Shown here: positions 17,728 to 20,524 of the stretch, one piece after another
How the letters are laid out: each line of letters opens with the position of its first letter
Position numbering within the stretch: position 1 is the stretch's first letter
NCBI RefSeq assembly: GCF_044324785.1
Contig: NZ_CP172127.1
DNA: 64,000 bases
From: Escherichia coli
Lineage (GTDB): Bacteria; Pseudomonadota; Gammaproteobacteria; Enterobacterales; Enterobacteriaceae
Strand: one strand, 5' to 3'
The notes under the pieces: generated by a model
Told to the model about the DNA's origin: nothing
The model's input: only the letters and a program-made list of their open reading frames with translations
Database searches by the model: none
Position numbers and translations under genes: made by a program

Positions 17728-18873
17728 TTAGCGACCGCCCATAATGGCAATGTAATCCTGCGTCCAGCGACTGTAGGGAACAAACTTGCCCCCTTCTGCT
17801 ATAGGCGTTTTCCAGAAGGCGATTTTATCGAAATAGTTAAAACCGTTGGTTTCACAACCTTTTTCGCCTAATAACGGACTGGCTTTACACCCTTCCGGCA
17901 CTACCGGTAACGAGCCAAACCAGGCCGCCACATCACCCTGCACTTTTGGCATTAATGACCAGTTCATCCATTTGTAGGCGCAAACCGGATGTTTCGCTTC
18001 GCTATGTAGCATGGTGGTGTCAGCCCAACCGGTAACGCCCTCTTTCGGGAAAACGGTAGCGACAGGCTGGCCTTCGGCTTTCAAGGCGTTGGCCTGATAG
18101 GGCCAGGCACTGGAAGCAACCACACCCTCGTTTTTGAAATCGCTCATTTGCACGGTAGTGTCATGCCAGTAGCGATGGATCAAACTATGTTGATCGCGCA
18201 GCACTTTCAGCACCGCCTGGTACTGTTCTTCGGTGAGTTGATACGGATCGCTGATGCCCAACTGCGGCTGAGTGGCTTTAACGAACAACGCAGCGTCCGC
18301 AATGTAGATAGGGCCATCATAAGCCTGGACGCGGCCTTTATTGCTCTTGCCGTCCGGCAGATTCTGCTCAACAAAAACCACTTGCCAGCTATCCGGCGGC
18401 GTCGGGAAGGTTTTAGTGTTGTACATCAGCAGGTTCGGCCCCCATTGGTAAGGTGTGCCGTAAACTTTGCCACTAACGTTAAACCAGTCGCCTTTAACCA
18501 CGCGCGGATCGAGCGTTTTCCAGTTGGGAATCAATGCGGTATTAATCGGCTGCACGCGTTTGCCCATAATCAGGCGCAGCGAGGCATCGCCGGATGCCGT
18601 AACCAGATCGTAACCCCCTTTGGCCATCAGACTGACCATTTCATCAGAAGTCGCGGCGGTTTTAACATTCACCGCGCAGCCTGTCTCTTTTTCGAACTGC
18701 GTTACCCAGTCGTATTGTTTATCAGTTTGTCCGCGTTCGATGTATCCCGGCCAGGCGATAATATCCAGTCGCCCTTCCGGTTTATCTAAATTGGTAGGTG
18801 GTTCGGCGGCGTGAGCGGTCATTATTGTCATGGTGAGCGCACACAGGCTGCTGCGGGCAAATGTCTTGCTCAT
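17728..18873 (-). CDS. ydcS: Periplasmic polyamine-type substrate-binding protein
   Basis: 381-aa ORF with signal peptide; PotD/PotF-like. Confidence 0.9.
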   Translation of the reverse strand: MSKTFARSSLCALTMTIMTAHAAEPPTNLDKPEGRLDIIAWPGYIERGQTDKQYDWVTQFEKETGCAVNVKTAATSDEMVSLMAKGGYDLVTASGDASLRLIMGKRVQPINTALIPNWKTLDPRVVKGDWFNVSGKVYGTPYQWGPNLLMYNTKTFPTPPDSWQVVFVEQNLPDGKSNKGRVQAYDGPIYIADAALFVKATQPQLGISDPYQLTEEQYQAVLKVLRDQHSLIHRYWHDTTVQMSDFKNEGVVASSAWPYQANALKAEGQPVATVFPKEGVTGWADTTMLHSEAKHPVCAYKWMNWSLMPKVQGDVAAWFGSLPVVPEGCKASPLLGEKGCETNGFNYFDKIAFWKTPIAEGGKFVPYSRWTQDYIAIMGGR

Positions 18874-19117
18874 AAAGTCTTACTCCTGTCGTAATTAATT
18901 GTTCAGCCGCCGTGCCGTAAAAATATCTCCTTGTTTAACCATAGACGGCGGCTAGCAGGCACACCTTCGCCCCTGAGAAAATTTAATCAGGTTGTGAGCT
19001 ACCGCGCATTATGCCGTCTGTAAGGTTATCTTCTGGAGTATAGACAAGGAGTTAGGAATTATGACTGCTATTCGAAATTCATATTACCCAACCTGAGAGG
19101 AATTTAATTAAACGCTA

Positions 19118-20524
19118 TTACAGCCGTTCTTGAATAAGTTTGCCTAATTGTTTAACCGCCTGTTCTTCGCGCTCGCCCCACTGCCACGCGGTATTAAAAC
19201 GGAAAAAACGTGACCAGTTTTCACCGGTAGAAAACATTTTACCCGGCGCAATACTGATATGATGCGTCAGTGCCGCCTGGCTTAATTCGCCCGCATCTAA
19301 CGGCGCGGGGAGCTCCAGCCAGAGAAAATAACCGCTGTCATTATGATGAATTTTCACTTCCGCAGGCAGATAACGCAGCAGTGCCTGCCAGGCACGTTGT
19401 TTACGTTCCGCGAGCTGGCGACGCAAGCGACGAAGATGGGCGTCGTATCGGCGCGTGGAAAGGTAATCCACCAGTGCAAGCTGCATCGGTGAGCTGGTGG
19501 AAAGCGTACTCATCAACTGCAAGCGTTGAATTTTACGTGCATGTTTTCCGGCGGCGACCCAACCAATACGAAAACCAGGCACCAGGCATTTCGAAAACGA
19601 AGAGCAATGCAAAACACCATCGTGGTGATCCCACGCTTTCGCAGGCAGCGGTTTTTCCCGTCCAAAATAAAGTTCGCTATAAACGTCATCTTCAATCAGC
19701 GTTACGTTGTACTGATTGAGCAACGCTACCAGCCGCGCTTTTTTCTGCGGCGTTAAGGTAAATCCGAGTGGATTCTGGCTATTAGTCATCAGCCAGCACG
19801 CTTTCACCGGATACTCCTGCAACGCCAGTTCCAGCGCCTTGAGATCAATCCCTTCTTTAACGTCCGTCGCCACCGATAACGCCTTCAGCCGTAACCGCTC
19901 CAGCGCCTGCAACGCGCCGTAGAAACAAGGATTCTCTACTATCACCCAATCGCCCGGTTCAGTGACCGCTTGTAAACTGAGGTTTAATGCCTCTAACGCC
20001 CCGGCGGTAATGACAATTTCATCAGGAGAAATAGTGATGCCCTGTAAGGCATAGCGACGAGCAATAGCCTGACGCAGTTCTGCGTTTCCTGGCGGTAAGT
20101 TTTCAATCACGCTCATCGCCGTGGCGGTTTTGCTTACCTGCGCCAGCGAGCGGTTTAGTTGTTGGAGGGGGAAAAGTCGCGGGTCGGGAAAGGCCGAGGC
20201 AAACGGAACGACCGACGGGTCGCGACTGGCCTGCAACATATCAAAAATATAGGTGTTGATATCGACTGCTTCATCTCGAGTGACTGGAATGACTGGCGCT
20301 TTCGGCATTTTTATTGCCTGTGGCGCAACGTAATAACCCGACTGCGGTCGCGCGATAATATGTCCCTGACTTTCGAGCAACTGATAGGCATGGCTGACAG
20401 TCATAAAGCTCATGCCAGAAAGCGCCACCTGGTCACGCAACGAAGGCAAACGATCGCCGGGTTGCCAGATACCCGACGCAATCTGCTCGCGTAATTGTTC
20501 TGCAAGCTGCTGGTATTTTTTCAT
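19118..20524 (-). CDS. ydcR: MocR-family regulator (GntR HTH fused to aminotransferase-like domain)
   Basis: 468-aa ORF; N-terminal HTH and class I aminotransferase-like C-domain. Confidence 0.9.
   Translation of the reverse strand: MKKYQQLAEQLREQIASGIWQPGDRLPSLRDQVALSGMSFMTVSHAYQLLESQGHIIARPQSGYYVAPQAIKMPKAPVIPVTRDEAVDINTYIFDMLQASRDPSVVPFASAFPDPRLFPLQQLNRSLAQVSKTATAMSVIENLPPGNAELRQAIARRYALQGITISPDEIVITAGALEALNLSLQAVTEPGDWVIVENPCFYGALQALERLRLKALSVATDVKEGIDLKALELALQEYPVKACWLMTNSQNPLGFTLTPQKKARLVALLNQYNVTLIEDDVYSELYFGREKPLPAKAWDHHDGVLHCSSFSKCLVPGFRIGWVAAGKHARKIQRLQLMSTLSTSSPMQLALVDYLSTRRYDAHLRRLRRQLAERKQRAWQALLRYLPAEVKIHHNDSGYFLWLELPAPLDAGELSQAALTHHISIAPGKMFSTGENWSRFFRFNTAWQWGEREEQAVKQLGKLIQERL

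Follow-up and report, generated by a model that had tools for sequence, protein, structure and literature searches.

Spurious intergenic open reading frames (ORFs) led by a Shine-Dalgarno (SD) sequence are the closest described counterpart of the element studied here, an 11-codon mini-ORF lying between ydcR and ydcS in a stretch of 64,000 nucleotides of Escherichia coli DNA (contig NZ_CP172127.1), hereafter the window. Like them, the mini-ORF is short, arises at chance frequency, is restricted to a lineage, is unannotated and shows no purifying selection. Unlike them, it has an SD-like motif that appears to be under strong selection for a function of the other strand, so that its ribosome-binding site (RBS) looks better conserved than a random one.

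Two kinds of control region can be compared with the DNA that the mini-ORF overlaps. The sigma-S/sigma-70 promoters with a KC-TAYRCT -10 region and a weak -35 (dps, rssA and ychH in Peano et al. 2015, Table S3, and the ydcS promoter P1) resemble a conserved element that we term block B, which reads TC-TATACT or TC-TATAAT, has an upstream TG, no conserved -35 and an invariant T-12, A-11 and T-7, and is found ahead of an RpoS-dependent operon. Block B departs from those promoters in that the centre of the E-sigma-S peak is at P1, which is 100 bp further downstream, and in that nothing in the consensus corresponds to the block B segment CTAACTCC. Composite activator-dependent regions (class I CRP, LysR/Nac-type) are the second comparison. 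As in these, the conserved blocks upstream of ydcS are phased in steps of ~10.5 bp and include a CRP-like half-site layout, and expression is cAMP- and RpoS-dependent and reportedly Nac-controlled. In contrast to class I CRP sites, the match in block C is moderate (TGCGC-N6-TCACA) and its distance from the P1 hexamer departs by ~2 bp from the classical positions, the factors being putative.

The ydcS gene serves as an RpoS reporter, and both ydcS and ydcU are ~9-fold down in cAMP-deficient as well as in rpoS mutants (PMC4512719). The ydcSTUVW genes are also cited as Nac-controlled, at second hand, and our literature search found no paper linking Nac binding with ydcS. At ydcS, an E-sigma-S ChIP-seq peak spans 1509526-1509697, with a validated transcription start site (TSS) at 1509623 and the -10 sequence TATGGT (Peano et al. 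2015, Table 1 and Table S3, PMC4447067). This start, P1, is the only ydcS TSS that we found in the literature. The genes, the mini-ORF and P1 are placed in the window as follows.

ydcS coding sequence: 17728 to 18873, minus strand, with its SD AGGAG at 18887-18883.
P1 -10 hexamer TATGGT: 18938 to 18943, minus strand, the published sigma-S-dependent ydcS promoter, with the TSS at ~18928-18932.
SD-like heptamer CAAGGAG: 19045 to 19051, plus strand, the reverse complement of the sense-strand CTCCTTG within block B.
Mini-ORF MTAIRNSYYPT followed by a stop, 11 codons: 19061 to 19096, plus strand, judged fortuitous.
ydcR coding sequence, encoding a MocR-family regulator: 19118 to 20524, minus strand.

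P1 and the ChIP peak were positioned with an offset of 1976 bp, which we take to be the difference between U00096.2 and U00096.3; this value agrees with the ydcS start at 1511654 in K-12. After conversion, the E-sigma-S peak covers 18854-19025, is centred on P1 and ends 12 bp short of the block B hexamer described below. In E. coli, the P1 -10 and TSS are bracketed by a perfect 9-bp GC-rich inverted repeat, AGCCGCCGT/ACGGCGGCT (18905-18913 and 18945-18953). Other genera read CGGCACGGCTGCCGC at this stretch, with a small CGGCA/TGCCG hairpin and a sigma-54-like GG-N10-GC spacing; this sigma-54-like motif is broken in Escherichia.

The mini-ORF starts with ATG at 19061-19063, continues with the codons ACT GCT ATT CGA AAT TCA TAT TAC CCA ACC and stops with TGA at 19094-19096. 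It is contained in the ydcR-ydcS intergenic region of 244 nt and, since ydcS and ydcR are both on the minus strand, it is antisense to both flanking genes. The layout is that of a small ORF, with a start, a stop and an SD at workable spacing. The gap between the GGAG of the SD-like motif and the ATG, TTAGGAATT, is A/T-rich. The original prediction had given the heptamer, the ATG, the peptide and the strand as we find them, with a spacer of 8 nt that measures 9 nt. Its description of the frame as antisense to the presumed ydcS promoter region is broadly right, yet the mapped P1 is ~100-120 nt downstream in the sense direction and the element itself falls in conserved upstream control DNA. A role as leader peptide or upstream regulatory ORF of ydcS does not agree with its location on the strand opposite to ydcS and ydcR.

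A second antisense mini-ORF, MPSVRLSSGV (10 codons, 19011-19043, plus strand, no SD), is present just upstream of MTAIRNSYYPT and shows again how easily such ORFs arise in this intergenic DNA. The pattern AAGGAG-N5-10-ATG occurs 6 times in the 64-kb window against 2.38 ± 1.52 in dinucleotide-preserving shuffles, several of these 6 sites being real gene starts. Across genera, an ATG is found 4-12 nt past the SD-like heptamer in 11 of 68 sequences, where ~9.6 are expected randomly, and the peptides that follow are unrelated. The pair of SD and ATG in the mini-ORF is no commoner than chance would give, and the configuration is not statistically unusual.

Annotation and expression resources were also examined. 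The ydcR-ydcS intergenic region of K-12 MG1655 has no annotated feature, and no annotation lies beneath the mini-ORF match in ~5,400 complete E. coli genomes. The literature search returned no record of the peptide; the 11-aa 'sORF12' of PMC10746267, considered as a match, belongs to OmrB and has nothing to do with it. Neither the Stringer 2021 small-ORF supplement nor the Cappable-seq supplement lists the locus in its accessible portion. A sigma-70 consensus scan of the region called no promoter-like site on the mini-ORF strand, and an Rfam covariance-model scan gave a sole match (E = 7.2, a nematode snoRNA, inside ydcS), i.e. no known non-coding RNA family.

We then compared the locus among species. 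Eighty ydcS loci were collected, one genome per species; 77 of these have ydcR upstream of ydcS, the two genes being 154-443 nt apart. One of these loci (L022, CACSKA010000006.1), labelled Chryseobacterium sp. 18061, has a ydcR-ydcS locus of the Enterobacteriaceae type and a YdcS 92% identical to that of E. coli; the assembly is probably mislabelled or contaminated. The alignment comprised 78 orthologous ydcR-ydcS intergenic regions, 5 from Escherichia and 73 from outside this genus. The ATG is aligned in 3 of the 78 only (the window, E. coli E69 and E. albertii), and the start-codon columns hold ATA in two further species, E. whittamii and Escherichia sp. E1V33 (loci L005 and L006). E. coli E69 carries a weaker SD (CAAGGGG), and the K-12 allele encodes MTAIRNSYYPI with a TAA stop. 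The differences within the mini-ORF among Escherichia are T2A, A3S, N6I, T11I, M1I and TGA to TAA, with no synonymous change. Every substitution is thus nonsynonymous or start-destroying, and purifying selection on the peptide is not seen. The invariant codons of the mini-ORF coincide with another conserved DNA element, block A.

The frame is kept in all main E. coli alleles examined and in E. albertii. For the E. coli alleles this carries little weight, since an intact frame is expected at 94-99% identity. In one strain (L089, NZ_CM136149.1, E. coli PRO_A-1551-6M-A_ESBL) a mobile-element insertion cuts the mini-ORF after codon 7; a gene for a 'plasmid pRiA4b ORF-3 family protein' is part of this foreign DNA, which has taken the place of the ydcR side.

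Antisense ORFs are also present in other genera, with sequences of the type M-(R/H/Q)-ISY-(D/G). These have 7-35 codons and differ in start, length and sequence, and their ATGs come from the GCAT of block A. A conserved antisense peptide M-x-ISY was considered and rejected, as it derives from block A, with starts that differ and a codon 2 that varies between R, H and Q. The recurrence of such ORFs is best read as the signature of a conserved DNA rather than of a conserved peptide.

The conserved DNA consists of four deeply conserved blocks, A to D (window 18975-19086, minus strand; loci L004-L082), separated by DNA that cannot be aligned. The blocks and the elements within them that concern us are the following.

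Block A: 19068 to 19086, minus strand, reading TAATATGAATTTCGAATAG in E. coli and CATAGGAAATnnGCATAG in most other genera; it overlaps mini-ORF codons 3-9.
Block B: 19033 to 19055, minus strand, reading CTAACTCCTTGTCTATACTCCAG, and in other genera ending ...TATAATCCAG; putative cis-regulatory DNA of ydcS.
-10-like hexamer TATACT of block B: 19037 to 19042, minus strand, preceded by TGTC, with a predicted TSS at ~19030 (K-12 ~1511497).
Block C core TGCGC-N6-TCACA: 18993 to 19008, minus strand, a CRP-like dimer site ~70 nt upstream of the P1 TSS.

The consensus of block B is a 23-bp sense-strand sequence, CTAACTCCTTGTCTATA(A/C)TCCAG, that is near-invariant across the Enterobacteriaceae. In the 73 non-Escherichia sequences, from more than 15 genera, at least 95% conservation was found at nearly every position. 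The block B pattern matches 68 of the 78 sequences and has 2 variable positions only, one of them position -8 of the hexamer. The heptamer CAAGGAG is exact in 45 of the 78 regions and reads CAAGGGG in most others, whether or not an ORF follows; it is conserved because it is the reverse complement of the CTCCTTG inside the near-invariant block B. Between blocks A and B the DNA varies, and it is here that the mini-ORF has its ATG. Within the 64-kb window, blocks A and B are each unique.

A terminator-like hairpin followed by a T-run is present between ydcR and block A in 37 of 63 non-Escherichia sequences (L007-L017, L027, L077 and others), and the stems show compensatory changes in Citrobacter. 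As this terminator precedes block A, blocks A and B are part of the control DNA of ydcS rather than of the ydcR 3'-UTR. No such hairpin was found between ydcR and ydcS in any of the 5 Escherichia sequences. The last codons and the stop of the mini-ORF are in Escherichia-specific sequence adjoining the ydcR stop, at the place where other genera have the terminator. In this part of Escherichia (19097-19117 region) the hairpin is lacking and the intergenic region has 244 nt versus ~270-350 nt elsewhere. With the shorter intergenic region and no terminator-like hairpin, ydcR transcription may run on into ydcS in E. coli.

Such a read-through ydcR-ydcS mRNA is the starting point of an alternative explanation, in which UCAUAAUUCCUAACUCCU would pair with the ydcS SD and start (AGGAGUAAGACUUUAUGA) and repress translation in Escherichia. 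In the inverted repeat I1, one arm of which coincides exactly with the ydcS SD and ATG, 14 of 18 positions are indeed complementary, and in a repeat I2, formed with a second CAAGGAG, 12 of 14 are; the lack of a ydcR-ydcS terminator in Escherichia also fits. Beyond the invariant CTCCT:AGGAG core, however, the pairing in the 73 sequences of other genera is 5.5 of 13, where 4.9 is expected randomly, and it reaches only 6-7 of 13 even in other Escherichia. An 18-nt repeat matching at 14 of 18 would by our rough estimate occur in a 271-nt region with a chance of ~0.15 or more. Moreover, the terminator precedes the element in most genera, and the element lies ahead of both the mapped P1 TSS and the TSS proposed below for block B, so that it would be absent from transcripts of the ydcS promoters. 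We consider an anti-RBS leader formed by I1 and I2 to be highly improbable and rejected it on the random-level pairing outside the core and on its location upstream of the mapped TSS.

The hexamer of block B is situated ~100 nt upstream of the published sigma-S promoter P1. Among the 68 matching sequences it reads TATAAT in 37 and TATACT, as in E. coli, in 31, with A or C at -8. The five other positions are fixed, T-12, A-11 and T-7 being invariant, and a C is found at -13. The TG upstream of the hexamer is at -16/-15, as compared with -15/-14 in the canonical extended -10. Neither the alignment nor sigma-70 scans of E. coli, Leclercia, Citrobacter and Raoultella showed a conserved -35 upstream of the hexamer, and it is because of the missing -35 that the scans call no promoter at block B; what they did detect were ydcR terminators. 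Readings of block B for sigma-E, -32, -28 and -54, judged by eye, have the wrong spacing or motifs. Two variants were seen at block B: K-12 (L003) and some other strains have CTCCTTGACTATACT versus CTCCTTGTCTATACT, a T-to-A change just upstream of the hexamer (window equivalent 19044), and strain 200112 has TATGCT in place of TATACT.

These features suggest a function of block B as DNA, the likeliest being that of a -10 region (TC-TATACT or TATAAT) in an upstream promoter, P2. P2 would be an activator-dependent sigma-70/sigma-S promoter of ydcSTUV-patD with no conserved -35, and block A, a probable transcription-factor site, could be its activator site, centred near -46. The additional conserved segment CTAACTCC would occupy the spacer of P2, and its conservation suggests an additional or alternative protein site.

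The blocks are also spaced in a regular manner. The A-to-B distance is 31/32 or 42/43 nt, with a shift of exactly 11 bp in 20 sequences, the B-to-C distance is 43 or 64-67 nt and the C-to-D distance is 59 or 69 nt. The inter-block distances therefore differ among genera by ~11, 21 and 10 bp. These steps amount to a single helical turn or to two and speak in favour of proteins that sit on the same face of the helix; they suggest a phased nucleoprotein architecture upstream of ydcSTUV-patD. In block C the half-sites are conserved and the spacer is variable; a CRP-type site is a lead only. A sigma-54-like GGCAC-N-GC reading of block D was also tried and fails in Escherichia.

The same spacing can be accommodated by a different role for block B, that of an operator for a DNA-binding or DNA-bending protein (e.g. 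IHF-like, LysR/Nac-type or YdcR) acting with blocks A and C on P1, in which case the ORF would still be fortuitous. The helical-turn steps linking A-B, B-C and C-D are in line with an operator, and so are the 23 consecutive conserved bases, including CTAACTCC, which exceed the needs of a -10 element. The sole mapped TSS is P1, on which the E-sigma-S peak is centred, and the second-hand Nac citation points in the same direction. On the other side, the hexamer is a perfect TATAAT or TATACT with variation confined to the least critical position, and the spacing rests on only three independent events (p roughly 0.02-0.03 by our own estimate), which is suggestive only. No factor can be assigned either: the regulon reconstruction of Suvorova and Rodionov assigns ylaC to YdcR in E. 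coli rather than ydcS, and their supplement names ylaC without site sequences. We regard a phased operator on P1 as a possible, somewhat unlikely account and prefer a P2 promoter at block B.

Whether block B is a promoter or an operator, the mini-ORF itself is very probably a fortuitous antisense reading of conserved cis-regulatory DNA upstream of ydcS. Its 'SD' is nothing else than the complement of CTCCTTG in block B, codons 3-9 are the reverse complement of block A, and the start codon, placed in the unconserved stretch that separates A from B, arose only in the E. coli / E. albertii lineage. What speaks for translation is an RBS that is good on paper, with AAGGAG, a 9-nt A/T-rich spacer and an ATG. 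The original prediction had left the choice between a fortuitous frame and a small regulatory ORF and proposed conservation of the frame as the check. The frame proved not to be conserved, with a start in 3 of 78 regions that is lost in two other Escherichia species, and this supports the first choice; for the second we found no purifying selection, no annotation, no ribosome-profiling record in the accessible tables and no promoter-like site on the strand.

A genuine, young, Escherichia-specific translated micro-ORF, perhaps carried by a divergent transcript that would start from the symmetric -10 region of block B at ~19046-19049, is very unlikely to be the explanation. Besides the strong SD, the acceptable spacer and the ATG, it can call on the intact frame in all main E. 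coli alleles and E. albertii. On the reverse strand the hexamer region reads GAGTAT (GATTAT in other genera), whose A2 and T6, read together with general knowledge of bidirectional promoters, make divergent initiation conceivable. Against it stand the start lost in two Escherichia species, the exclusively nonsynonymous substitutions, the weakened SD of E. coli E69, a strand with no promoter-like site, the missing annotation and the absence from the small-ORF tables in the portion available. A divergent TSS would, in addition, be placed inside or just before the SD and leave little or no leader. More improbable still is a specific form of this idea, in which block B would also fire antisense in E. 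coli and E. albertii and yield a short-leadered RNA with AGGAG and ATG at its 5' end, i.e. a recently born, lineage-specific micro-ORF that might interfere with the use of the ydcS promoter.

As a gene candidate, the mini-ORF does not matter and should stay unannotated. It is a cautionary case, since an SD-like motif may look conserved when the opposite strand holds a conserved promoter or operator sequence, and a conserved 'RBS' by itself is no evidence of a small ORF. The by-product of the analysis is a map of the four phased blocks that precede ydcSTUV-patD, one of which has a consensus -10 box ~100 bp above P1. The block architecture appears to be that of an ordinary composite bacterial control region, seemingly undissected before, and the map offers testable sites for the control of an RpoS-, cAMP- and reportedly Nac-dependent operon that is used as a general-stress reporter.
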